A stretch of DNA of 64,000 nt from NCBI GenBank assembly GCA_016187125.1, contig JACPKF010000007.1, positions 835-64,834 on the forward strand, read 5' to 3'. Shown piece after piece: positions 8,283-63,997 of this stretch. A program made the translations under genes and the position numbers. Under the pieces are notes generated by a model. The model was not told the origin of the DNA. It saw nothing but the letters and a program-made list of their open reading frames with translations, and ran no database searches. Within the stretch, counting starts at the first letter, position 1. Each line of letters starts with the position of its first letter. The stretch comes from Candidatus Saccharimonadota bacterium (lineage in GTDB: Bacteria > Patescibacteriota > Saccharimonadia > Saccharimonadales > UBA10212).

Positions 8283-8291
8283 CTTGTTGTA

Positions 8292-8333
8292 AGTACCCCA
8301 CTTTTGGTCCGATCGGACCAAAAGTGGGGTACT
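8292..8333. terminator. bidirectional hairpin terminator, perfect 42-nt palindrome centred on CCGATCGG
   Basis: agtaccccacttttggtccga|tcggaccaaaagtggggtact lies between convergent genes. A sister palindrome is at 25249-25288. Confidence 0.7.
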
Positions 8334-8346
8334 TTAGTATCTTAAT

Positions 8347-9063: not shown

Positions 9064-10881
9064 ATGGATGCGGTGAGCGAAGTAAAATCTAGACTGAATA
9101 TTGAAGACGTGATTTCAGAGTACGTCCAACTGAAGCGAGCCGGGCGAAACTTTAAAGGCTTGAGCCCCTGGACCAATGAAAAAACGCCGAGTTTTATAGT
9201 TAGTCCGGAAAAGCAAATCTGGCATGATTTTTCCTCTAGTCGGGGCGGCGACATGTTTAGCTTTGTTATGGAAATGGAAGGTCTTGATTTTCGCGGTGCG
9301 CTGGAGCATTTAGCCAGGAAAGCCGGAATAGATCTAGAACAATTCCAAAGCTCAACAGCCGGTGCCAATAGCAAGTTTAAGGCTCGGGTTAGTGAAGCTT
9401 TAAGCTTGGCTGCCAAATTTTATCAAAAGCAGCTAACAGTTAATTACGCGGCTCTTTCATATCTGTTGAGTGTTAGAAAATTTAGTAAAAAAACGCTGCT
9501 TGATTGGCAGTTGGGCTATAGTCCTAATACCAGCCGCGGGCTGACCGATTTTTTATCTAAAAAGGGCTTTGAAGCTAGTGAACTGAAAGCCGCTGGACTA
9601 ATTACACAACGCCGCGATGGTAGTAACGCTGATATGTTCCGTGGACGGATAATGATCCCGCTGTGCGACAGCCGCGGCAATGTAATTGGCTTTACAGCCC
9701 GGTTTTTAGAAACCAGCCTTTCGCCAGCTGGCGAAGCCCCCAAATATATTAATACGCCCAGTACCCCGCTTTATGATAAAAGCCGTCATGTATTCGGACT
9801 GCATTTGGCCAAAGAAACTACCCGCAAGGCCGGTTTTGTGGTGGTGGTCGAAGGCAATATGGACGTTATTGCTTCTCATCAAGCCGGCGTGACTAACGTT
9901 GTAGCTACTGCCGGTACAGCCATGACCACGCAGCATCTGCGTGAGCTTAAACGTTTTACAGGTGATATTCGTCTATGTTTTGATTCCGATCAAGCCGGCA
10001 TCACAGCTACCGAGCGGGTTATACCGTTGGCTCAAAAAGTTGGCGTAAACTTAAACATTGTTAGCATAGATTCCAAAGACGGTAAAGACGCTGATGAACT
10101 GGTTCAAAAAGACCCGCAGCTATGGCAAAAAGCTATCAAACAAGCCAAGTATGCGCCGGATTGGTTAATCGAACACTACAAAGATTCTCTGGATCTGTCT
10201 TCGGCGCAGGGCAAGCGGGCTTTTACCGACGCGCTGCTAGTGACTATCAGACGCTTGAGCGACCCGGTAGAGAAAGAACACTACCTAAAAACTATCGCCG
10301 AAGCCACTAACACTAGCCTAGAGGCGATTAAGTCAAAATTGAGTGCCAGTGTTTCAGACGACTCGTTCGTGCCAAGAAGAAAAGTAGCGCCTCAGTCTCA
10401 GATTTTGGATCAAAGCGCCGTAGAATACCAAAGACTGCAGGATCATTTTTTAGCCAATGTGCTTATGCAACCTAAATTACGCGACTTACTGGATAATCTT
10501 AAGCCTGAGTATTTTAGCGAGGGCCCAGCCCGAACCACTTTTAAGTTCCTAGAGAAATATCCTGACTTTAAAGGGTTAAAAAAGGCCGCCTCGCCCGCCA
10601 ATCCGTCCAAGGCGGATCAGGAGAGCAAGGAGTTGCAGGAGATTGCTGATTATGTTAAAATTATATCATTACAGTTTGAGGAGCTCTATCAAGATCTGAG
10701 CCTGGAAGATTTAAGAATTCAGGCAGCTAGTCTCAAGAAACGCTTAATAGAGCGCTACGTAAAAAGCCAAAAGAGGCAAATTTCAGTTGCCATGCAAACA
10801 GAGGTTGATGAAAAGAAGCTGCAGGGGCTTATCCAAAAAGTTGATCAACTTAACAAACTGATCAACCCGCCCAAAAAATGA
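9064..10881 (+). CDS. dnaG: DNA primase
   Basis: Zn-ribbon region (KGLSPWTNEKTPSFIVSPEKQIWHDFSS) plus TOPRIM (VVVVEGNMDVIASHQAG...DSDQAG). The start was set at the ATG at 9064 rather than the ORF-track start. Confidence 0.9.
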   Translation: MDAVSEVKSRLNIEDVISEYVQLKRAGRNFKGLSPWTNEKTPSFIVSPEKQIWHDFSSSRGGDMFSFVMEMEGLDFRGALEHLARKAGIDLEQFQSSTAGANSKFKARVSEALSLAAKFYQKQLTVNYAALSYLLSVRKFSKKTLLDWQLGYSPNTSRGLTDFLSKKGFEASELKAAGLITQRRDGSNADMFRGRIMIPLCDSRGNVIGFTARFLETSLSPAGEAPKYINTPSTPLYDKSRHVFGLHLAKETTRKAGFVVVVEGNMDVIASHQAGVTNVVATAGTAMTTQHLRELKRFTGDIRLCFDSDQAGITATERVIPLAQKVGVNLNIVSIDSKDGKDADELVQKDPQLWQKAIKQAKYAPDWLIEHYKDSLDLSSAQGKRAFTDALLVTIRRLSDPVEKEHYLKTIAEATNTSLEAIKSKLSASVSDDSFVPRRKVAPQSQILDQSAVEYQRLQDHFLANVLMQPKLRDLLDNLKPEYFSEGPARTTFKFLEKYPDFKGLKKAASPANPSKADQESKELQEIADYVKIISLQFEELYQDLSLEDLRIQAASLKKRLIERYVKSQKRQISVAMQTEVDEKKLQGLIQKVDQLNKLINPPKK

Positions 10882-12791: not shown

Positions 12792-12829
12792 ATAGGAATA
12801 AATTCAGCGATCGCTGAATTTATTCCTAT
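12792..12829. terminator. perfect 38-nt palindrome centred on GCGATCGC, likely terminator
   Basis: ataggaataaattcagcga|tcgctgaatttattcctat lies 16 nt after the kinase stop. Confidence 0.6.
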
Positions 12830-13979: not shown

Positions 13980-14077
13980 AGCATCTCCTTATGATGTACT
14001 TGGTATCTACAAACCCAGACAAACCTACCCCAGCGAGTAAGAGCAGTTTTTTACGACCTACATAAACCATTCTAATA

Positions 14078-14107
14078 TTCTTAAGAATAATAGAATAGGA
14101 ATAATTA
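14078..14107. repeat. copy of the ttctaatattcttaagaatattagaa palindrome family (imperfect)
   Basis: cattctaatattcttaagaataatagaata lies about 45 nt upstream of ORF 14153. Other copies are at 48498-48523, 48780-48807 and 51421-51452. Confidence 0.7.
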
Positions 14108-25248: not shown

Positions 25249-25288
25249 TTACCCCAAAAAGTGTCCGATCGGACACTTTTTGGGGTAA
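25249..25288. terminator. bidirectional hairpin terminator, perfect 40-nt palindrome centred on CCGATCGG
   Basis: ttaccccaaaaagtgtccga|tcggacactttttggggtaa lies between convergent genes. Confidence 0.7.
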
Positions 25289-26683: not shown

Positions 26684-27796
26684 ATGCCTGAGCTTCCTGA
26701 AGTTGAGATTATAAAACAAGGCTTATCTAAACTATTGCCCGGGCGGATTATTGCCGACGTTTGGCACAACTGGCAAAAATCTTTTCCGAACGCGCCAGCG
26801 GATGTGGCCCGATTTTTGGTGGATGCCAAGATCATATCAGTTAAACGTCGGGCCAAAGTCTTGATAATTGAACTTTCCAGCGGCTACTCGCTGGTTGTCC
26901 ATTTAAAAATGACAGGGCAACTAGTTTTTGTGCCAAAAACCAGCGAGCAAAAAGCCCGCCTTCGCCAAAGCTACGGTCGACAGGCAAAAAGCAAAAAGCA
27001 AAAAGCCGAAAAAAAGTTTGGTGGTGGGCATCCGACCAAAAGCTTAATAGGTAAGCTGCCGGACAAATCAACCCGAGTCATTGTTGAGTTTTACCCCCCG
27101 AAAGGCGCGCGGGACATACGCTTGAGTACGTTGCAAGGAAAAGTTGAGCAACGGACTAAGCCGTATATGAAATACGGTGAAGGAGTAGCGCAGACTTTGA
27201 CACAGCAAAGTGCCAAGAGTGTCGCCGGAGTGCCAGGGCGACAGCCCGAGCAGCAGGGCGACACGGCGCATGGTCCGCGACTTTTTTTTAATGATCAGCG
27301 TAAGTTTGGCTGGATGCGCCTGCTGCCGACGGTTGAGGTGCCCCAGATTGACTTTATGAAAAAAGTCGGCCCGGAGCCGCTGGAAGATAATTTTACGGTT
27401 GGTGTGTTTATTGAAAGACTCAACCGCCGAAAAAACAGCTCGATAAAAGCTATGCTGCTGGATCAAACCGTGCTGGCTGGAGTGGGGAATATCTATGCTG
27501 ACGAATCCTTATTTGCCGCTAAAATCCATCCAGCTACCCCGGTTTTTAAAGTTTCTAAAGCAAAATTAGTAATGCTCCATAATGCCCTGCGCCAAATACT
27601 GCAGCAGGCAATAGATAAAGGCGGCAGCACGGACCGAAATTACGTTGATGTCAAAGGTAAAAAGGGGAGTTATCTGAACTTTGCCCAGGTTTTTAGAAGA
27701 CAAGGCCAAGTGTGTTCCCGCTGCGGAGGCGTCATACAGAAGATACGCGTAGCTGGAAGAGGTACTCACATATGTCCAAGGTGTCAAAAACGTTAA
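26684..27796 (+). CDS. mutM: formamidopyrimidine-DNA glycosylase with a ~62-aa internal insert
   Basis: N-terminal MPELPEVE, H2TH (GVGNIYADESLF) and a C-terminal zinc finger (CSRCGG...CPRCQ). It is 370 aa against about 270-290 aa for typical Fpg. Confidence 0.88.
   Translation: MPELPEVEIIKQGLSKLLPGRIIADVWHNWQKSFPNAPADVARFLVDAKIISVKRRAKVLIIELSSGYSLVVHLKMTGQLVFVPKTSEQKARLRQSYGRQAKSKKQKAEKKFGGGHPTKSLIGKLPDKSTRVIVEFYPPKGARDIRLSTLQGKVEQRTKPYMKYGEGVAQTLTQQSAKSVAGVPGRQPEQQGDTAHGPRLFFNDQRKFGWMRLLPTVEVPQIDFMKKVGPEPLEDNFTVGVFIERLNRRKNSSIKAMLLDQTVLAGVGNIYADESLFAAKIHPATPVFKVSKAKLVMLHNALRQILQQAIDKGGSTDRNYVDVKGKKGSYLNFAQVFRRQGQVCSRCGGVIQKIRVAGRGTHICPRCQKR
27092..27277 (+). repeat. in-frame translated insertion element (family F3) inside fpg
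   Basis: The core gagtacgttgcaagg...ccgtatatgaaatacggtgaaggagtagcgcag aligns with 37493-37583 in the UDG gene. Contains hairpins ccgtatatgaaatacgg and gtcgccggagtgccagggcgac. Confidence 0.75.
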
Positions 27797-31743: not shown

Positions 31744-31822
31744 GCCAAAATAGAAGTAGAAAGACCGTATTTACAAGGAGGCTCCTTGTAAATACGGAAA
31801 ATATTGTATAGTAGCTAACCAC

Positions 31823-32593
31823 ATGGATGGATTTTTGTTAGTTGATAAGCCAATTGGTATGACGTCGCATGATATTGTAGCGAGAGTGCGCGGCGTGCTA
31901 CGCACAGTCGCCAGTCAATACTCAACAGTCGCCAGTCGAAAAAAACTAGGGACTAAGGACTATCGACTAGTGACTCCTTCGGCGAAGCCGAAGGTTGGTC
32001 ACACTGGAACTCTGGATCCGCTGGCCACGGGATTGATGATTTTAGTGATCGGCAGTTATTGTAAACGGGCTAGCGAATTTAGCAAATTGGACAAAACTTA
32101 TGAAGTAGAACTGACGTTAGGAGCTACCAGTACAACCGGTGATACCGAAGGTCACATAACTTCAACTTCAGATAAGCACAACCTAAACAGAATTCAGCGA
32201 TCGCTGAATTCTGTTCCGAAAATAACGGAGGTGCTTAAGACATTTATTGGCGAAATTAAACAGGTTCCTCCAGCCTATAGTGCCATCAAAGTGGGCGGAC
32301 AAAGGGCCTATAAATTGGCGCGGCAAGGGAAGCCAGTCAAAATTGAGCCGCGAAAGGTTATGATCTACGAAATACGATCTACGATCTACGAGTACCCGAA
32401 GCTGTGTTTCACAGCCAGGGTGTCTAGTGGTACATACATCCGGTCACTGGCCGAAGATATCGGTAAAAAACTCGGCACCGGCGCTTATGTTTCAGCTCTG
32501 CGCCGCACCAAAGTTGGAGGCCTTAATATAGAAAATGCTCTCGAAATTGACAAGTTCTCGCTTCCAAACATCGAAAATCACTTGCAAAAGTAG
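31823..32593 (+). CDS. truB: tRNA pseudouridine(55) synthase with repeat-derived inserts
   Basis: Contains GFLLVDKPIGMTSHDIV, KVGHTGTLDPLATG and SSGTYIRSLAEDIG. Confidence 0.9.
   Translation: MDGFLLVDKPIGMTSHDIVARVRGVLRTVASQYSTVASRKKLGTKDYRLVTPSAKPKVGHTGTLDPLATGLMILVIGSYCKRASEFSKLDKTYEVELTLGATSTTGDTEGHITSTSDKHNLNRIQRSLNSVPKITEVLKTFIGEIKQVPPAYSAIKVGGQRAYKLARQGKPVKIEPRKVMIYEIRSTIYEYPKLCFTARVSSGTYIRSLAEDIGKKLGTGAYVSALRRTKVGGLNIENALEIDKFSLPNIENHLQK
32187..32216. repeat. perfect 30-nt palindrome (aacagaattcagcga|tcgctgaattctgtt) inside the truB CDS
   Basis: It has the same ttcagcgatcgctgaa core as 12792-12829 and is translated as NRIQRSLNSV. Confidence 0.75.
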
Positions 32594-36992: not shown

Positions 36993-37859
36993 ATGACCAA
37001 ACAAGAAGAACTTGCAAAAATTAAGGCTGATATTGTGAAGCAAAAAATTTGCCCAGACCTGGCCGCCGGTGCCACGCAACTGGTTTTTGGCGATGGTGAT
37101 CCGGACGCCGAGCTAGTCTTTATTGGTGAAGCGCCCGGTAAAAACGAAGATGAGCAAGGTCTGCCATTTGTCGGCGCGGCCGGTAAGTTTTTAAATGAGA
37201 TGCTAGCACTTATAGGGCTAAAACGTGAGGACGTATACATTACCAACATTGTTAAATATCGCCCGCCGGAAAATCGTGACCCATTGCCTGATGAAAAAAC
37301 GGTCTTTTTGCCGTTTTTGCATGCTCAGCTGGCAGTGATTAAGCCCAAAATTGTGGTAACGCTAGGCCGTCACAGCATGGAGTGCTTTTTGCCGGATCTG
37401 AAAATTAGTGTCTGTCACGGCCAAGCCAAAAGGATCAGAGTGGAGAATGGAGAGGGCAGAGTGAAGAAAGTCGTGGCAGGTGGCCAAGTGGCGAGTACGA
37501 TGCAAGGCGCAGGCGAGCAGCGGACTGAAACGTATGGAAAATACGGTGAAGGAGCAGCGCAGCCTGCAACACAGCAGCGTGCCGCAAGTGACAACAGTGT
37601 CGGTGGCTCTGCCGACGACCAGGTTGTTACGTCCTTGGTCATCCTGCCGTTGTTTCATCCGGCGGCGGCCTTATATAACGGCGGAATGCGCCAAACATTA
37701 ATAGACGATTTTATGAAGATACCGCGTATTTTAGCTAAACTTGAGCAGACGCCTAACTCTTTTGATAAACAAAAAACGCGGGAGGTGCAAGTTTCTGTCG
37801 TGTCTCAGCCAGAAGTTAAAAAAGCTGGCCCGAGCCAACTTCAATTAGGTATTAAGTGA
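36993..37859 (+). CDS. family-4 uracil-DNA glycosylase with a ~65-aa internal insert
   Basis: GEAPGKNEDEQGLPFVGAAGKFL and HPAAALYN are family-4 UDG motifs. It is 288 aa against about 190-210 aa typical. Confidence 0.85.
   Translation: MTKQEELAKIKADIVKQKICPDLAAGATQLVFGDGDPDAELVFIGEAPGKNEDEQGLPFVGAAGKFLNEMLALIGLKREDVYITNIVKYRPPENRDPLPDEKTVFLPFLHAQLAVIKPKIVVTLGRHSMECFLPDLKISVCHGQAKRIRVENGEGRVKKVVAGGQVASTMQGAGEQRTETYGKYGEGAAQPATQQRAASDNSVGGSADDQVVTSLVILPLFHPAAALYNGGMRQTLIDDFMKIPRILAKLEQTPNSFDKQKTREVQVSVVSQPEVKKAGPSQLQLGIK
37436..37638 (+). repeat. in-frame translated insertion element (family F3) inside the UDG gene
   Basis: gagtacgatgcaaggcgcaggcgagcagcggactgaaacgtatggaaaatacggtgaaggagcagcgcag is homologous to the fpg insert. 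The peptide is QGAGEQRTETYGKYGEGAAQ. Confidence 0.75.
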
Positions 37860-37863
37860 TGAA

Positions 37864-38059
37864 CCCATCTCACACCTCCACTCCAGCTTCGGAAACTTTG
37901 TGCGGCCTACAACAAGCATACCGCTCGCCCGGCCTTCGTAGCCAAGGCCACTTCGGCGGAGTAGGCTCACCATACCTTACAGGTATGCTTCCTCACCTGA
38001 TGCTTGTTTCGTCTACACCTAAAGGTTTCTCACTTAACAGACTGGAGATATGAAATGGG
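37864..38059. other. ~196-nt rod-like structured element (long imperfect terminal inverted repeats); ncRNA or MITE
   Basis: The 5' cccatctcacacctccactccagcttcggaaactttgtg pairs with the 3' cacctaaaggtttctc...gactggagatatgaaatggg. The internal module cgcccggccttcgtagccaaggccacttcggcggag recurs inverted at ~45940-45975. Confidence 0.5.
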
Positions 38060-41595: not shown

Positions 41596-41645
41596 TCTCA
41601 ATCCGAGGTCCGAGACTTACTTCATAATAGATAACAGATCAAGAT

Positions 41646-41683
41646 ATGAGAATAGATTCAGCGTTCGCTGAATCTATTCTCAT
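41646..41683. terminator. palindromic hairpin atgagaatagattcagcg-tt-cgctgaatctattctcat
   Basis: An 18-bp stem 50 nt after the last rnj-end copy. It has the same termini as the element at 1561-1661. Confidence 0.6.
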
Positions 41684-41780
41684 ACTCTTTGTCCACCTGC
41701 AGAACCTAGTTATCGACGCGTCGAGTAAGTTAACTGCAAGGGAAGAGAATATTTAATTAGTTAAGTACTTAATGATTTAC

Positions 41781-45828: not shown

Positions 45829-46488
45829 ATGAGTGCACGAGCAACGCAGACTGGTGCAATACAAGGCGCGGGTGAGGAGCGCAACGAAGATGTACAAAAT
45901 GGTACATCGAGTAAGCACCGCAGCCCGCAAGCCGACTCCGCCGAAGTAGCTTCGGCTACGAAGGCCGGGCGCACTAATGCGTCTGAAAGCGCTAGCAGAA
46001 TCGGCGGCTCAGCCAGTGAGCAGTACAGTGCGGTGCGTGGGTCGGTGAATCAATATGAGATTGCGGTGTTATACCATCCGGATCTGGAAATTGATCTGGG
46101 AAAAGCCTCTGCTAAGGTAGAACAGATCATCGCTACCAGCGGGGGTAAAATTACCAAAACTGACAATTGGGGCAAGCGCAAGCTGGCTTATCCCATTAAG
46201 AAAAATGACTTTGCGGTGTATGTTTTTTACGATGTGGCAATGGAACCATCAGGCGTAGCCAAAATCGAGCAAACTTTTAATATAACCGATGAGATTATCC
46301 GTTTTTTGATAACCCGGCCGGATTTTAAAGCCAAAGCCAAAGCCGAAGCTCTGGCCAAAGAAAAGGCTAAGAAAGCTGCCGAGAGAAGCGAAAAAGATGA
46401 CGAAGATAAGGACGACGAGCGAGAGACTGAAAAACCTCGTCGTAGTAGAATAATAGCTAAGAACTTGGGACTAGGGACTAAGGACTAA
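45829..46488 (+). CDS. rpsF: 30S ribosomal protein S6 with a repeat-derived 72-aa N-terminal extension (alternative start GTG 46045)
   Basis: The S6 core is YEIAVLYHPDLE...KTDNWGKRKLAYPIKK. A strong SD aaaggagg serves the ATG at 45829. The conventional S6 N-terminus begins at 46045. Confidence 0.85.
   Translation: MSARATQTGAIQGAGEERNEDVQNGTSSKHRSPQADSAEVASATKAGRTNASESASRIGGSASEQYSAVRGSVNQYEIAVLYHPDLEIDLGKASAKVEQIIATSGGKITKTDNWGKRKLAYPIKKNDFAVYVFYDVAMEPSGVAKIEQTFNITDEIIRFLITRPDFKAKAKAEALAKEKAKKAAERSEKDDEDKDDERETEKPRRSRIIAKNLGLGTKD
45832..46044 (+). repeat. F3-related insertion immediately after the rpsF start codon, in frame
   Basis: atacaaggcgcgggtgaggagcgcaacgaagatgtacaaaatggtacatc parallels the fpg/UDG insert core (peptide QGAGEER). 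It also carries the ctccgccgaagtagcttcggctacgaaggccgggcg module. Confidence 0.65.
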
Positions 46489-48497: not shown

Positions 48498-48523
48498 TTC
48501 TAATATTCTTAAGAATATTAGAA
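48498..48523. repeat. perfect 26-nt palindrome ttctaatattctt|aagaatattagaa just upstream of the HTH gene
   Basis: It ends 7 nt before the ATG at 48531 and belongs to the 4-copy palindrome family. Confidence 0.8.
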
Positions 48524-48530
48524 TGTAACT

Positions 48531-50884: not shown

Positions 50885-52021
50885 CTAGACATTGAAACGG
50901 AATTCGACTACGTCGTCGGGTTGCATAATGTAGTCTTTACCCTCGGTGCGCACCTTGCCAGCGGCCCGGGCGCCCGCTACTGAACCGGCAGTAATTAAAT
51001 CCTGGTAATTTATGACTTGAGCGGCGATGAAACCTCTCTGAAAGTCGGAATGAATAACCCCTGCGGCTTGTGGGGCAGTGGACCCTTTGCTAATTGTCCA
51101 GGCCCGAACTTCTTTTTCGCCGGCGGTCAAGAAACTCTGCAAGCCCAAAACACCATATGCGGCATGAATTAACTGAATTAGCCCACTCTCATTTTGTCCA
51201 TAACTGGCAAGGAGTTCCTGACGGTCAGTTTCGTCAAGTCCCCGTAGCTCACTTTCTAATTTTGCGCAAATAAATACGGCTTTTGCGGGCGCAATTAGAT
51301 CTGTTAATTCCTTTTGCAGGGATTGTCCCTGCAAACTGGCTTCGTCGATGTTAAACACGTAAATTACTGGCTTAGCAGTTAGCAGCTGGAGTTCGTCCAA
51401 GAAAACTGACTGGTCCTTATCCATTCTAATATTCTTAAGAATATTAGAATGGGACAGGGAAGAGTTGGTTTGTAGGTGGGTATTGATAGAATTTAGGGCG
51501 TCGAGTTGAGGTTTTAGTTTTGGGTTGGCTTTAGTTTCTTTTTCCAAACGGGGCAGGCGTTTATCAACCGTTTGCAGGTCGGCAAGTACCAGTTCGGTAT
51601 TTATTATTTCTATATCCTCCGACGCTCCGACCACTAAGTCGGAAGTCGGAGCCCCGATCGAAGCGTCGGGGTTTTTCACGCGGGCTACATTTGGATCATC
51701 AAAGGCTCTTACTACGTGGCAAATGGCATTTGCTTGTCTAATGTGGGATAAAAATTGGTTGCCCAAACCCTCGCCTTGGCTGGCGCCAGCGACTAAACCG
51801 GCAATATCTACAAATGTCACCGTGGCTGGCACGATTTTTTCGGTTTTATAAATCTCGGCCAGTTTTTGCAAGCGCGAGTCGGGAATCGGCACGATGCCGG
51901 TATTTGGCTCAATGGTCGCAAAAGGGTAATTAGCAATCAGGGCATTAGCGTCTGTCAACGCATTAAACAGCGTAGACTTACCGACATTGGGGAGGCCAAT
52001 AATTCCAATACTAAGACTCAA
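50885..52021 (-). CDS. ychF: redox-regulated ATPase YchF
   Basis: GIIGLPNVGKSTLFNALT, the TGS domain and the C-terminal DDVVEFRFNV. It carries a palindrome insert at 51421-51452. Confidence 0.95.
   Translation of the reverse strand: MSLSIGIIGLPNVGKSTLFNALTDANALIANYPFATIEPNTGIVPIPDSRLQKLAEIYKTEKIVPATVTFVDIAGLVAGASQGEGLGNQFLSHIRQANAICHVVRAFDDPNVARVKNPDASIGAPTSDLVVGASEDIEIINTELVLADLQTVDKRLPRLEKETKANPKLKPQLDALNSINTHLQTNSSLSHSNILKNIRMDKDQSVFLDELQLLTAKPVIYVFNIDEASLQGQSLQKELTDLIAPAKAVFICAKLESELRGLDETDRQELLASYGQNESGLIQLIHAAYGVLGLQSFLTAGEKEVRAWTISKGSTAPQAAGVIHSDFQRGFIAAQVINYQDLITAGSVAGARAAGKVRTEGKDYIMQPDDVVEFRFNV
51421..51452. repeat. perfect 32-nt palindrome ccattctaatattctt|aagaatattagaatgg inside the ychF CDS
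   Basis: It is translated on the minus strand as SHSNILKNIRMD in the helical insertion domain and belongs to the same family as the 48.5-kb copies. Confidence 0.85.
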
Positions 52022-54020: not shown

Positions 54021-55655
54021 TTAGTGGGCATAAAAACCGCGGGCGGTGGCGTCGGGCAGAGTATAAAAAGCCACGCCGGCTTTTTTTAAGGCTTCGACTA
54101 CTTTATGGTCATTAACGGAGCCACGGGTGGCAAATATGGCCTTGATGCCGGCTTTGGCCAGCGTTTCCGCACCGTCAGGGAACGGAAAGAAACTGTCGCT
54201 ATAGGCTACGGCTCCATCGGTGTCGTGGCCAGCATCCCGGGTGCGTTTGAGCGCCAGCTGGGCCGCCGAAACTCTATCTTGCTGGCCGACGCCGTTGCCA
54301 ATTAACATGCCATTTTTAACTAAGGTTATAGTGTTGCTGTTACTGGTGCTGCCGATGGCCCAAGCTAGCAGCATATCTTTCTCCTCGTTTGCGAGACCGG
54401 GCCTCGCAAACGAGGATTGGCTGGCTTTTTCCAGCTCGGCTGATTTAAAATCTAGAACAAAGTCGTAGTTTTGCTGGGCCAAAACGCCGCCGCGGACGTA
54501 TCTAAAACGCCGTGCAATATCGAGTGATTTTTGGTTTAACTGCCCGAGAGCCGAGTTTTTAACCAGGCGTAGTTTGCCGCCCCTTCTTTGCAAAATTTCC
54601 ATGGCTTTATCCGTAAAGTCGGCAGCTGCCACTACGTCCAAAAGTCGTTTACCGCCGTTCATGGCATGCTCAAGTAGCAAGTTTGCTTCATCTTCATCAA
54701 CCGCAAAATTGATCATAACGCAGCCGCCAAAAATCGCTCGGCTGTCTCCTTCCAGCATTTTTTTAATAGCTTCATCCGGATTTTCTGAAACGGCAGCCCC
54801 GCAGACATTGCCGTGCTTGGCCCCCAGTGCAATCGCCGGTACTTGGTTAAAGTTTTTATCGAAGCCGGCGGCTATATGGGTAATGGTTTGCAGCAGCCGA
54901 TCAATATCAGCGTAGTTGTTATAGCTAAGCCCGGTGCCGCCAACTTGTGCAAAGTTGGCAATGGACAGAGGGTCTTGATCACTCCGTCTGGCATAAAGTC
55001 CGGCGCCACCTTGCCACGGATTTTCGCCGTATTTAGCCTGGGCGATTTGATTGCCTATAAAGCCAAAGGCTTCTGAGCCGTTTAGGTATTTAGCCGACTC
55101 TAAGATGTAGCGAGCAACTTCTAGTTCCGCGGCGGCGGCTAAGCTTTTAATAAATTGCTGCTCGTTCGGCCGGCCGGCTTTTAGCCAATCTAACACTGTT
55201 TGTCTTTGGCTGGGTTTGGATAGCACTATGCGGCGGCCTTTGGCCGCCGCATGTAGCAGAGTCGGGCCGCCGACATCGGTTTTTTCTATAATTTCGCTTT
55301 CTGGGGCTCCGTTGTTGATGGCCTCAGTCAGTGGGTACATATCAACACAAACTAAATCAATCCGCGGAATCCCCAAGCGTTTTAGTTCGGCGGCTTGCTG
55401 TTTGGTGTTATCGGCCAAAATGCCGGCGTGGATCTCGCGCGACAGAGTTACCACTCGGTGGCCTAAAATGGCCTGGCCACCGACCAGCTCGGAAACATCA
55501 GTAACTTTAACACCAGATTTTTTAATTGCTTGGGCCGTGCCACCGGACGCGTAAATTTTCCAGCCCAAATCAGCCAGTCCGTGGGCAAATTCCTCTATGC
55601 CGGTTTTGTCATAAACCGAAATAAGAGCATTAGGCTGGACTTGGTTCTCCATCAT
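54021..55655 (-). CDS. purH: bifunctional AICAR formyltransferase / IMP cyclohydrolase
   Basis: MGS-like N-terminus ALISVYDKTGIEEFA...ASGGTA and the AICARFT domain. The C-terminus ends in RGFYAH. Confidence 0.9.
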   Translation of the reverse strand: MMENQVQPNALISVYDKTGIEEFAHGLADLGWKIYASGGTAQAIKKSGVKVTDVSELVGGQAILGHRVVTLSREIHAGILADNTKQQAAELKRLGIPRIDLVCVDMYPLTEAINNGAPESEIIEKTDVGGPTLLHAAAKGRRIVLSKPSQRQTVLDWLKAGRPNEQQFIKSLAAAAELEVARYILESAKYLNGSEAFGFIGNQIAQAKYGENPWQGGAGLYARRSDQDPLSIANFAQVGGTGLSYNNYADIDRLLQTITHIAAGFDKNFNQVPAIALGAKHGNVCGAAVSENPDEAIKKMLEGDSRAIFGGCVMINFAVDEDEANLLLEHAMNGGKRLLDVVAAADFTDKAMEILQRRGGKLRLVKNSALGQLNQKSLDIARRFRYVRGGVLAQQNYDFVLDFKSAELEKASQSSFARPGLANEEKDMLLAWAIGSTSNSNTITLVKNGMLIGNGVGQQDRVSAAQLALKRTRDAGHDTDGAVAYSDSFFPFPDGAETLAKAGIKAIFATRGSVNDHKVVEALKKAGVAFYTLPDATARGFYAH

Positions 55656-57680: not shown

Positions 57681-58721
57681 ATGCATATACTAGGTGGGAC
57701 GTCGGACTTCTTTGGCTTAGACATGGGAGTCAGCGCAGTTAGGGTAGTGCAACTCAAAGGAACAGGACCCACTAAGACGCTGGATCGCTACGGGCAGACG
57801 CCTATCACTGGCACTGTGGCTCTGAGTGACTCTAAGGCCGACCGCCAAAGGATCGCCCAGGTGATCCATGAGTTAACGACGCGGGTAGGTATATCAACTA
57901 AAAATGTGGCGGCTAATTTACCCTCTAGCCGGGTGTTTACGACAGTTATTGATATAGATCGTCTACCGCCTGAAGAGCTTGCCAAGACCATAAGCTATCA
58001 AGCCGAGTCGTATATTCCGACTCCCTTGTCTCAGTCTAAAATTGACTGGGCAATTATTGGTAACTCGCCTAAAGACCCTGGCAAAATTGAACTCCTGCTA
58101 TCTAGTGTGCCCAATGATTTCATCGAAAGGCGGCTCGAGATATTGGAATCCATAGGTCTCAATGTAGTGGCTTTTGAGCCTGATAACATGGCTCTAGTGC
58201 GAGCTATTACTTCACCTGATACGGCTGCTCCTTGGCTAATACTTGATATTGGCAATGCTGCGACGGATTTGGTAGTTGTAGTTGGCGGTATGCCACACTT
58301 GGCTCGTTCTATTCCTATGGGTCAGCAAGCTTTTGTCCGGGCAGCTATTCAAGGTTTGGGAGTTGATCCTTCTCAGGCGGAGCAGTTTGTGTTTAAGTTT
58401 GGCCTGTCTCGCGACAAGCTAGAAGGCCAGGTCTATGACGCCATAATTGGGACTATTGACGGTCTGGTGGCGGAGATCGAAAAATCTATTAAATTCTTTG
58501 GCGAGCGCTACAGAGGCGCCAAGTTGGAGGGGATAGTTGTAACTGGTGGCGCTTCGACATTACCTGAACTGCCGCTTTATCTGGCTAATAAATTTAACTT
58601 GAATGTCGAAATTGGCAACGCTTGGCGGAATGTTAATGTGCCAACCGAACGGCAAAACGAGGTGCTGGCGGTTTCTAACCACTTTGCCGTAGCCGTAGGC
58701 CTGGCGGAGAGAGAGACATGA
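57681..58721 (+). CDS. pilM: type IV pilus assembly protein PilM
   Basis: Actin-like ATPase fold: FGLDMGVSAVRVVQLKG ... LDIGNAATDLVVV ... VVTGGAS. Confidence 0.85.
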   Translation: MHILGGTSDFFGLDMGVSAVRVVQLKGTGPTKTLDRYGQTPITGTVALSDSKADRQRIAQVIHELTTRVGISTKNVAANLPSSRVFTTVIDIDRLPPEELAKTISYQAESYIPTPLSQSKIDWAIIGNSPKDPGKIELLLSSVPNDFIERRLEILESIGLNVVAFEPDNMALVRAITSPDTAAPWLILDIGNAATDLVVVVGGMPHLARSIPMGQQAFVRAAIQGLGVDPSQAEQFVFKFGLSRDKLEGQVYDAIIGTIDGLVAEIEKSIKFFGERYRGAKLEGIVVTGGASTLPELPLYLANKFNLNVEIGNAWRNVNVPTERQNEVLAVSNHFAVAVGLAERET

Positions 58722-58844
58722 CTACGTCATTCCCGTTCACCGTTCACCGTGCACCGTTCACCGTTAATACATGGTCAACGGTCAATGGCAAATGTAAGGT
58801 AAATGGTAGATGGCTAATTGTAAATGCCTCCGAAGGAGGATCTT
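58722..58844 (+). repeat. pilM-pilN spacer: (ttcaccg)n / (cggtaaa-like)n heptad hairpin plus an SD-sequestering hairpin
   Basis: tcccgttcaccgttcaccgtgcaccgttcaccgtta ... caacggtcaatggcaaatgtaaggtaaatggtagatgg, then cctcc-gaa-ggagg (58827-58839). It is homologous to 63863-63997. Confidence 0.75.
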
Positions 58845-63862: not shown

Positions 63863-63997
63863 AGTCGTGACTGCGTCACTCCCGTTCACCGTTCACTGTT
63901 CACCGTTCACCATTAAGGCACGGGTAATAGTTAACGGTAAATGCACGGTAAATGGTAAAAGGCTAATGGTAAATGTGGCTTCGAAGGGAGCCGTCTG
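63863..63997 (+). repeat. spacer after pilT, paralogous to the pilM-pilN spacer
   Basis: tcccgttcaccgttcactgttcaccgttcaccatta ... ttaacggtaaatgcacggtaaatggtaaaagg, then ggcttc-gaag-ggagcc (63977-63992) sequestering the SD before the ATG at 63998. Confidence 0.75.

Follow-up and report, generated by a model that had tools for sequence, protein, structure and literature searches.

The stretch of DNA analysed here, a window of 64,000 nucleotides from a contig of a Candidatus Saccharibacteria metagenome-assembled genome (MAG), carries on its forward strand the gene for Fpg/MutM (26684-27796; open reading frame (ORF) list and Pfam PF01149, PF06831 and PF06827), the product of which is identical to NCBI protein HYW35_03575 from Candidatus Saccharibacteria bacterium and contains an internal block of extra sequence. 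About 58 of these extra residues are one copy of a repeat element of about 174 bases, relatives of which lie in two further genes of the window and in many other Saccharibacteria genes and intergenic regions. An earlier sequence-only reading, made from the DNA letters and a list of ORFs, had remarked that this Fpg is longer than usual, and at 370 amino acids it does exceed the 271-274 residues of solved Fpg/MutM proteins. Neither the catalytic N-terminus MPELPEVE nor the H2TH domain or the zinc finger is disrupted, as judged by sequence and Pfam comparison. Residues 1-80 and 199-369 align with residues 1-80 and 103-271 of L. lactis Fpg, leaving 118 residues (81-198) in the place of ~22.

An alignment of 22 Fpg orthologues puts the extra block between ...STRVIVEF and RLFFNDQRKFG, exactly where that reading had set it. 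The same reading had held that a block present in all orthologues would count against it; most lack it. The insert is present in seven of 120 close Fpg homologues, and the closest relative, P0002 (90% identical over aligned columns), is among those without it. Insert-free orthologues all have a loop of five residues at this place (TDGSK-like, TDxxK). When the filled and empty junctions were read by hand (the window against L019, which is P0002), the left linker YPPK- (27092-27104, +) fell outside the element, and the comparison suggests that it is probably what remains of the original five-residue host beta-turn. AlphaFold2 models residues 141-195 without secondary structure (predicted local distance difference test (pLDDT) 24-29) between strands at 130-136 and 199-204, and thus predicts a disordered loop at the tip of a beta-hairpin, in keeping with the surface loop that the same reading had raised as a question.

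This first copy is full length (177 nt, 27105-27281, +), scores 156.8 bits (E = 1.5e-37) with R1, a covariance model built from 25 full-length copies, and reads in frame, with no stop in the standard frame, as Fpg residues ~141-199, an example tryptic peptide predicted for the insert being YGEGVAQTLTQQSAK. Mapping the model alignment onto the window gives a terminal stem, P1, with its 5' strand GCGGGACATACG at 27109-27120; a long irregular hairpin, P2 (27121-27217), with an apical stem-loop at 27162-27176 and conserved purine-rich internal loops GAGCAACGGACUAAG and GGUGAAGGAGUAGCGCAG; a second hairpin, P3 (27219-27264), defined by fold and covariation and showing compensatory changes among six orthologous Fpg inserts; and the 3' strand of P1, CGCATGGTCCGC, at 27267-27278, which directly adjoins the conserved host residues (R)LFFNDQ, all on the forward strand. 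The range originally proposed for the repeat, 27092-27277, was nearly right, if slightly offset from the P1-to-P1 span of 27109-27278.

The second full-length copy (174 nt, 58 codons, 37474-37647, +; R1 160.1 bits) lies in frame within a family-4 uracil-DNA glycosylase (UDG) gene (36993-37859, +; 288 residues, Pfam PF03167), with P1 at 37478-37489 and 37633-37644, P2 at 37490-37586 and P3 at 37588-37630 on the same strand. The syntenic UDG orthologue in locus L046 has 188 residues and no insert, and the two sites read KRYKGQ / VYLPLFHP when empty (L046) and KRIRVENGEG...VVTSLVILPLFHP when filled (window). The homology proposed between the Fpg and UDG inserts holds at the DNA level, blastn aligning 27124-27214 with 37493-37583 at 78% identity over 91 nt (E = 3e-16). 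The core motifs and peptide proposed as common to both are also found: each of the two DNA motifs occurs twice in the window (27124/27176 and 37493/37545; 0.35 and 0.12 expected by chance), and a six-frame scan finds EQRTxxYxKYGEGxAQ in frame in the Fpg and UDG ORFs only. The window UDG has, in addition, a C-terminal tail of ~37 residues (37745-37859) that is absent from the L046 orthologue.

The N-terminal block of rpsF, which had been called related, is indeed a degenerate third copy. The rpsF (S6) ORF (45829-46488, +; 219 residues) is preceded by a strong AAGGAGG ribosome-binding site upstream of ATG 45829, and its S6 domain begins at residue 75 (Pfam PF01250 over residues 75-163). Within the N-terminal extension R1 detects a P2 part at 45862-45934 (+; 30.4 bits, E = 5.6e-6), the hairpin of which has a compensated apical stem, AUGUAC/GUACAU, and a P3 and P1 3' part at 45947-46048 (+; 20.1 bits, E = 0.002). 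A long imperfect hairpin is common to all three copies, its stem sequences differing yet remaining complementary, and an R1 scan of the 64 kb with filters off returned no copy beyond those in Fpg, UDG and rpsF. Between the two parts of the rpsF copy, a self-blast of the window located a piece of another repeat (45930-45971). This 42-nt stretch is 90% identical, in inverted orientation, to 37926-37967 just downstream of UDG, and from sequence the pair looks like a second repeat family nested in the third copy.

Two further features were observed at the Fpg locus. Upstream of the element there is another block of variable length, rich in Lys and Gln, at 26933-27016 (residues ~84-111), where the window Fpg has a 30-nt insertion (ARLRQSYGRQ) relative to P0002 and the orthologues P0006, P0008, P0010 and P0016 carry a recurring NSQFPIPNSSEA segment; this block may be another in-frame repeat. 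An antisense ORF of 132 residues (27068-27466, -) runs across the element and, though probably spurious, indicates that antisense frames of the element can remain open.

A three-helix fold under nucleotide-level constraint

The full-length unit of ~174 nt is composed of the terminal stem P1, the ~97-nt irregular hairpin P2 and the ~45-nt hairpin P3, with P1 closing a tight three-way junction that has almost no junction nucleotides. The hairpins first noticed inside the Fpg insert are real (fold z = -4.1) but are not simple hairpins, being parts of a covarying three-helix fold. An RNAalifold consensus of 25 full-length copies contains 53 pairs, 42 of them with compensatory changes. Across 38 copies 94.4% of pair cells are paired, compared with 27-42% when the partners are slid, and both sides change in 47 of the 53 pairs, a level reached by none of 500 shuffles; all 12 pairs of P1 covary. 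On the plus strand of the element G-U pairs outnumber A-C pairs by 119 to 25, and in copies antisense to the flanking genes by 34 to 5. Since this excess is also found in the antisense copies, it is the plus strand that folds, whichever way the host is transcribed.

A short form of ~128 nt, consisting of P1 and P2 without P3, was found in intergenic positions only (L018 6818-6945, L031 9684-9812, L010 4257-4381, L036 2317-2443, L026 193-320 and L047 18130-18257). At two sense intergenic copies (L001 3180-3200 and L004 3185-3215) the Shine-Dalgarno sequence of the gene that follows (GAGGAGG..ATG and AAAGGAG..ATG, respectively) falls in the 3' strand of P1 or immediately beside it, where the fold could mask or present the ribosome-binding site.

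A tree of element copies groups them by host gene, uniting five of six Fpg copies and likewise the two from Mur ligases, those from FolD and those from pilin-like genes. Identity is 64-91% between orthologous inserts, compared with 58-61% between copies within one genome (L046). The grouping by host and the low identity within a genome indicate that the insertions are old and have not undergone within-genome concerted evolution. The in-gene copies show no codon periodicity, with entropies of 0.868, 0.860 and 0.862 bits for first, second and third positions, and their conservation profile correlates with that of the intergenic copies (r = 0.64). Third positions among six Fpg orthologues are 70% identical in the element and 41% in the host gene (38% at four-fold sites); the corresponding values are 90% and 47% for the Mur ligase pair, and 86% and 50% for the pilin-like pair. 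Taken by themselves, the six Fpg inserts have 92.5% of their cells paired and compensatory changes in 25 of 53 pairs, compared with 1-6 when the partners are slid. Together, the third-position identity and the compensatory changes identify the conserved object as the nucleotide sequence and its fold rather than the peptide. The resident copies are under nucleotide-level purifying selection in place, which is unlike what a decaying selfish insert would show.

Hosts, reading frame and distribution

Exact-pattern DNA scans recovered 14 loci from 185,579 species genomes and 26 loci from JGI metagenomes, while the same scan of viral contigs gave no match. Together with the covariance model they yielded ~45 copies beyond the window, almost all from Saccharibacteria/Saccharimonadales. 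Four pattern matches (L015, from a Verrucomicrobia MAG, L020, L021 and L010:2303) were unconfirmed by R1 and were taken as chance matches or fragments. The family appears to be confined to Saccharibacteria (Saccharimonadia). R1 also found extra copies in the fetched loci, at 2-4 per 8-21 kb and with E-values down to 1e-44, a density that implies tens of copies per ~1-Mb genome. One example, L046, from a related genome, has four copies in 21 kb, on both strands and among co-oriented genes, which counters the idea that the orientation of copies is set by replication. Two of its copies, 9388-9562 (+) and 9798-9973 (-), are inverted and flank a conserved 80-residue hypothetical gene just upstream of Fpg.

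The counts comprise at least 16 sense in-frame copies in a single frame, one antisense in-frame copy and ~20 intergenic copies. Copies inside genes are stop-free in one sense frame and 174 or 177 nt long, and intergenic copies contain stops and frameshifts and measure 172-176 nt. The proposal that the Fpg block is a dispersed repeat read through in frame is borne out; an open frame and a multiple-of-three length that are kept only in genes point to translation, and in Fpg the insert most likely passes into mRNA and protein, where it would form a disordered surface loop tolerated by the enzyme. Relative to neighbouring genes the intergenic copies are antisense in 11 cases and sense in six, often adjoining stop or start codons; one sits between atpB and atpE.

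Fpg and UDG, the two DNA-repair glycosylases first noticed, both carry the element, but it is not directed at such enzymes: its hosts (identified by Pfam and motifs) belong to at least 25 unrelated housekeeping families. Those with Pfam matches or clear motifs include Fpg, UDG, FolD, TruB, UvrD/PcrA, Mur ligase, TatD, YchF and DnaG, and N-terminal copies are found in RNase J, S6 and a pilin-like protein. A first profile search with the insert peptide returned only stand-alone ORFs of 45-106 residues, the DNA of which consists of intergenic element copies. An exhaustive search gave 175 protein clusters, of which roughly two in three are spurious ORFs of small size, and added as hosts an RluA-type pseudouridine synthase, PrmC (three clusters), DHFR, a Y-family polymerase (DinB), MetK, NrdR, malic enzyme, MsrA, MGMT, a GTPase, PilM, Dus and a DNA methylase. 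Alignments with empty-site orthologues place the inserts at variable loops in Fpg, UDG, YchF, TruB and DnaG; in YchF, for example, the empty site LIAPAKA / VFICAKLE corresponds to the filled site LVNSESRD...TRVPC / LFICAKLE. The sense-frame peptide is hydrophilic and rich in G, Q, E, A and S, and the peptide read from the antisense frame abounds in Leu, Cys and Phe; the bias towards the sense frame may reflect the hydrophilic peptide that this frame encodes. The single antisense in-frame copy (L007 5887-6053, +) lies within ArgRS (L007 4587-6530, -), where it splits the catalytic domain and encodes a different, Ser-rich peptide.

Repeats unrelated to the element were also observed in the window. 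A direct repeat of 120 nt (63868-63987 and 58719-58836) has 80% identity (E = 5e-23). The ends of several genes carry palindromes of 26-50 nt, perfect or nearly so (8291-8334, 12792-12829, 14067-14100, 25249-25288, 31765-31797, 32186-32215, 41641-41689, 48498-48525, 51421-51452 and 54382-54416), with sequence in common among those at 51421, 14067 and 48498 and likewise between those at 41632 and 12778. These palindromes are likely to be bidirectional terminators that form a short REP-like family.

Origin, present role and relation to known repeats

We regard it as very probable that the Fpg block belongs to an old family of small repeat elements, non-autonomous and with a pronounced structure, of which it is one resident copy. 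Such an element would have spread through a folded single-stranded intermediate (DNA or RNA, corresponding to its plus strand), presumably with the help of a trans-acting enzyme that recognises the conserved P2 loops and is not a classical terminal-repeat transposase leaving target duplications. Inside genes, the survivors would be those copies that are a multiple of three in length, stop-free and almost always in one sense frame. In the resident copies the fold may act in cis, through mRNA stability or processing or through protein binding, a role suggested by its maintenance under selection.

Several observations weigh against this account. Among 38 copies there are no flanking direct repeats, and hence no target-site duplication, the left flank tending to be A-rich and the right flank T-rich; P1 is a terminal inverted repeat of at least 12 bp in every copy but keeps its complementarity while its sequence varies; and no transposase lies beside any copy in the up to 21 kb examined around each. 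As no target-site duplication, sequence-conserved terminal repeat or linked transposase was found, classical transposition of a miniature inverted-repeat transposable element (MITE) is unsupported, and the label of MITE given by the sequence-only reading does not hold in the strict sense, no autonomous partner having been seen. The element may be immobile today. On a crude neighbour-joining tree, Fpg proteins with the insert are scattered over five positions, at each of which the sister sequence lacks it. The stems could be maintained in part by template-switch correction of quasi-palindromes, although the conserved third positions and loops are beyond the reach of that mechanism. As to method, model-fitted alignments are biased towards structure, and part of the copies were gathered by an exact 21-nt pattern, so that the apparent conservation of that stretch is inflated; copies gathered independently of the pattern keep the P2 loop motifs, but more loosely. 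The AlphaFold2 model of Fpg is modest (mean pLDDT 62, from a 22-sequence alignment), and we infer translation solely from the kept open frame.

The scattered Fpg inserts share ancestry as well as the flanking 'IIEF' and 'HGPR' features, and their distribution is what either homologous recombination spreading a filled allele or a large number of precise losses would give; a further alternative is that the element inserted there more than once. With regard to the terminal stem, P1 might be derived from the target, through insertion into an existing hairpin or inverted duplication of a flank. The 3' strand of P1 in UDG, which overlaps a host-like V-I-L, and intergenic copies in which complementarity extends into the flanks would be consistent with such an origin, whereas no hairpin exists at the empty Fpg site, and in both Fpg and YchF P1 forms part of the inserted block.

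Foremost among the rival explanations is that selection on the host maintains the element chiefly as a functional module of structured RNA or single-stranded DNA, for which the peptide is a tolerated by-product and 'mobile element' describes an origin rather than a present role; it could act as a signal for mRNA stability or processing or as a platform that binds protein, or could be a small RNA. Third positions in resident copies that are far more conserved than those of the host gene, and compensatory changes among orthologous copies, are what such a module would leave, as are internal-loop motifs that are present also in copies outside the pattern selection. Copies in one genome are not homogenised, so they have not been overwritten by a conserved master copy, and many intergenic copies adjoin gene ends or starts. 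On the other hand, the intergenic copies lie in both orientations (the 11 antisense and six sense cases above), and the G-U bias on the element's own strand in antisense copies means that a single sense-RNA function is insufficient. Furthermore, Rfam 15 offers no matching family (the window gave nothing that reached the gathering score, 27000-27350 gave only noise at E <= 10, and four canonical copies had no match at E <= 1), and close relatives live without the copy in Fpg and in UDG. This explanation remains a tentative one that we judge possible but not the probable outcome. Of similar standing is a reading in which the resident copies, rather than being decaying selfish DNA, are a phylum-specific, dual-coded three-helix RNA or single-stranded DNA module with conserved purine-rich loops, under purifying selection and translated inside dozens of essential housekeeping genes; if true, its possible roles would include mRNA processing or stability, or a platform for a Saccharibacteria-specific protein.

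It is very unlikely that the element is an intron-like intervening sequence, with P1 joining its ends and the RNA being excised and religated so that the peptide is never made. The pairing of the ends by P1 at a tight three-way junction, the patchy single-site distribution among orthologues, reminiscent of homing elements, and the conserved nucleotide fold would all suit such an arrangement. However, every in-gene copy is open and a multiple of three in length while intergenic copies are not, a property that selection would not keep if the RNA were excised; in addition, no Rfam group I or II intron or self-cleaving ribozyme matches at E <= 10, and the element contains no endonuclease or maturase ORF. 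Excision at the protein level was considered as well. Inteins have an N-terminal Cys/Ser, a C-terminal His-Asn followed by Cys/Ser/Thr and a splicing domain of at least 130 residues. The insert, with 58 residues, starts GARDIRL/VAGGQVA, ends ...HGPR/...SLVIL and has neither splicing blocks nor a Pfam match, and an intein was rejected.

It is highly improbable that the block is a protein-level module, a loop or linker particular to the lineage that was selected for its peptide and spread by domain shuffling, the hairpins being incidental. The recurrence of EQRTxxYxKYGEGxAQ in many proteins speaks for it, but third positions are not relaxed, the same sequence is found between genes, where it contains stops and frameshifts and lies in either orientation, every helix covaries strongly, AlphaFold2 predicts the peptide to be disordered, and the antisense ArgRS copy encodes a different one. 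Finally, although the window derives from a MAG, chance similarity or a chimeric or misassembled contig can be set aside almost entirely, given the same Fpg-site insertion in six independent assemblies from different projects, E-values down to 1e-44 and intact reading frames.

Among known repeats, the closest parallel to the family of structured repeat elements proposed here is the one first drawn from the sequence, with Rickettsia palindromic elements (RPEs), and it is upheld by the occurrence of intergenic and in-frame copies, the use of one reading frame and the placement in surface loops. Like RPE-1 to RPE-3 and the palindromic elements of Wolbachia, the element is small and strongly paired, with 5' and 3' ends that pair with each other (PMC2229807, PMC3767692, PMC10969869). 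As with RPEs, copies are both intergenic and in frame within conserved housekeeping genes that are not destroyed by them, the same peptide frame is used, the peptide is (here by prediction) solvent-exposed, the insert site is shared among orthologues, and tens of copies (here an expectation) reside in a ~1-Mb reduced genome of a host-dependent bacterium. The element differs from RPEs in that all confirmed copies have Patescibacteria/Saccharibacteria hosts, the two being set apart by host and description rather than by sequence comparison; in its length of 174 nt, against 105-146 nt; in its three-helix junction, against a single long stem-loop; and in a terminal stem that varies in sequence. 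Its resident copies are, moreover, under clear nucleotide-level purifying selection with compensatory changes. The RPEs were reportedly described by Amiri et al. 2002 as proliferating and then deteriorating.

Other families share fewer features. ERIC/IRU, the 107-bp form of Correia/NEMIS and YPAL are likewise repeats of 100-200 bp with stable stem-loop transcripts and size variants (PMC2229807); they are occasionally fused in frame to ORFs, and intercistronic copies can affect mRNA stability (PMC2229807). ERIC, Correia and YPAL, however, have sequence-conserved terminal inverted repeats, TA duplications and in some cases a cognate transposase, none of which was found for the element. The CIR repeats of Caulobacter and Brucella resemble it in their two-armed RNA model, a structure conserved across species and partial MITE characteristics (PMC2229807) but differ in that they are strictly intergenic, contain stops in every one of the six frames and bear a GANTC methylation motif. 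REP/BIME sequences mobilised by RAYT are also palindromic, defined by structure, located at gene ends and folded as single strands, but are only 20-40 bp long, extragenic and marked by a GTAG/CGTC tag (PMC3733652), and no such tag is present at the ends of the 174-nt, often intragenic element.

We found no description of the element in the literature on repeats of Saccharibacteria, Patescibacteria or the Candidate Phyla Radiation (CPR). The sources consulted regard protein-coding palindromes read in frame as peculiar to Rickettsia and Wolbachia, and a CPR family without a shared host lineage suggests that such palindromes recur in reduced, host-dependent genomes. The element accounts for some of the additional, unexplained length seen in many housekeeping proteins of Saccharibacteria, as well as for a class of spurious 'hypothetical proteins' of 50-100 residues in metagenome annotations. 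Genetic tools exist for some Saccharibacteria. With a fold that is conserved more than the synonymous sites of its hosts, the element offers a tractable case for the co-evolution of structure and reading frame, and bears on whether such inserts are neutral passengers or serve a function.

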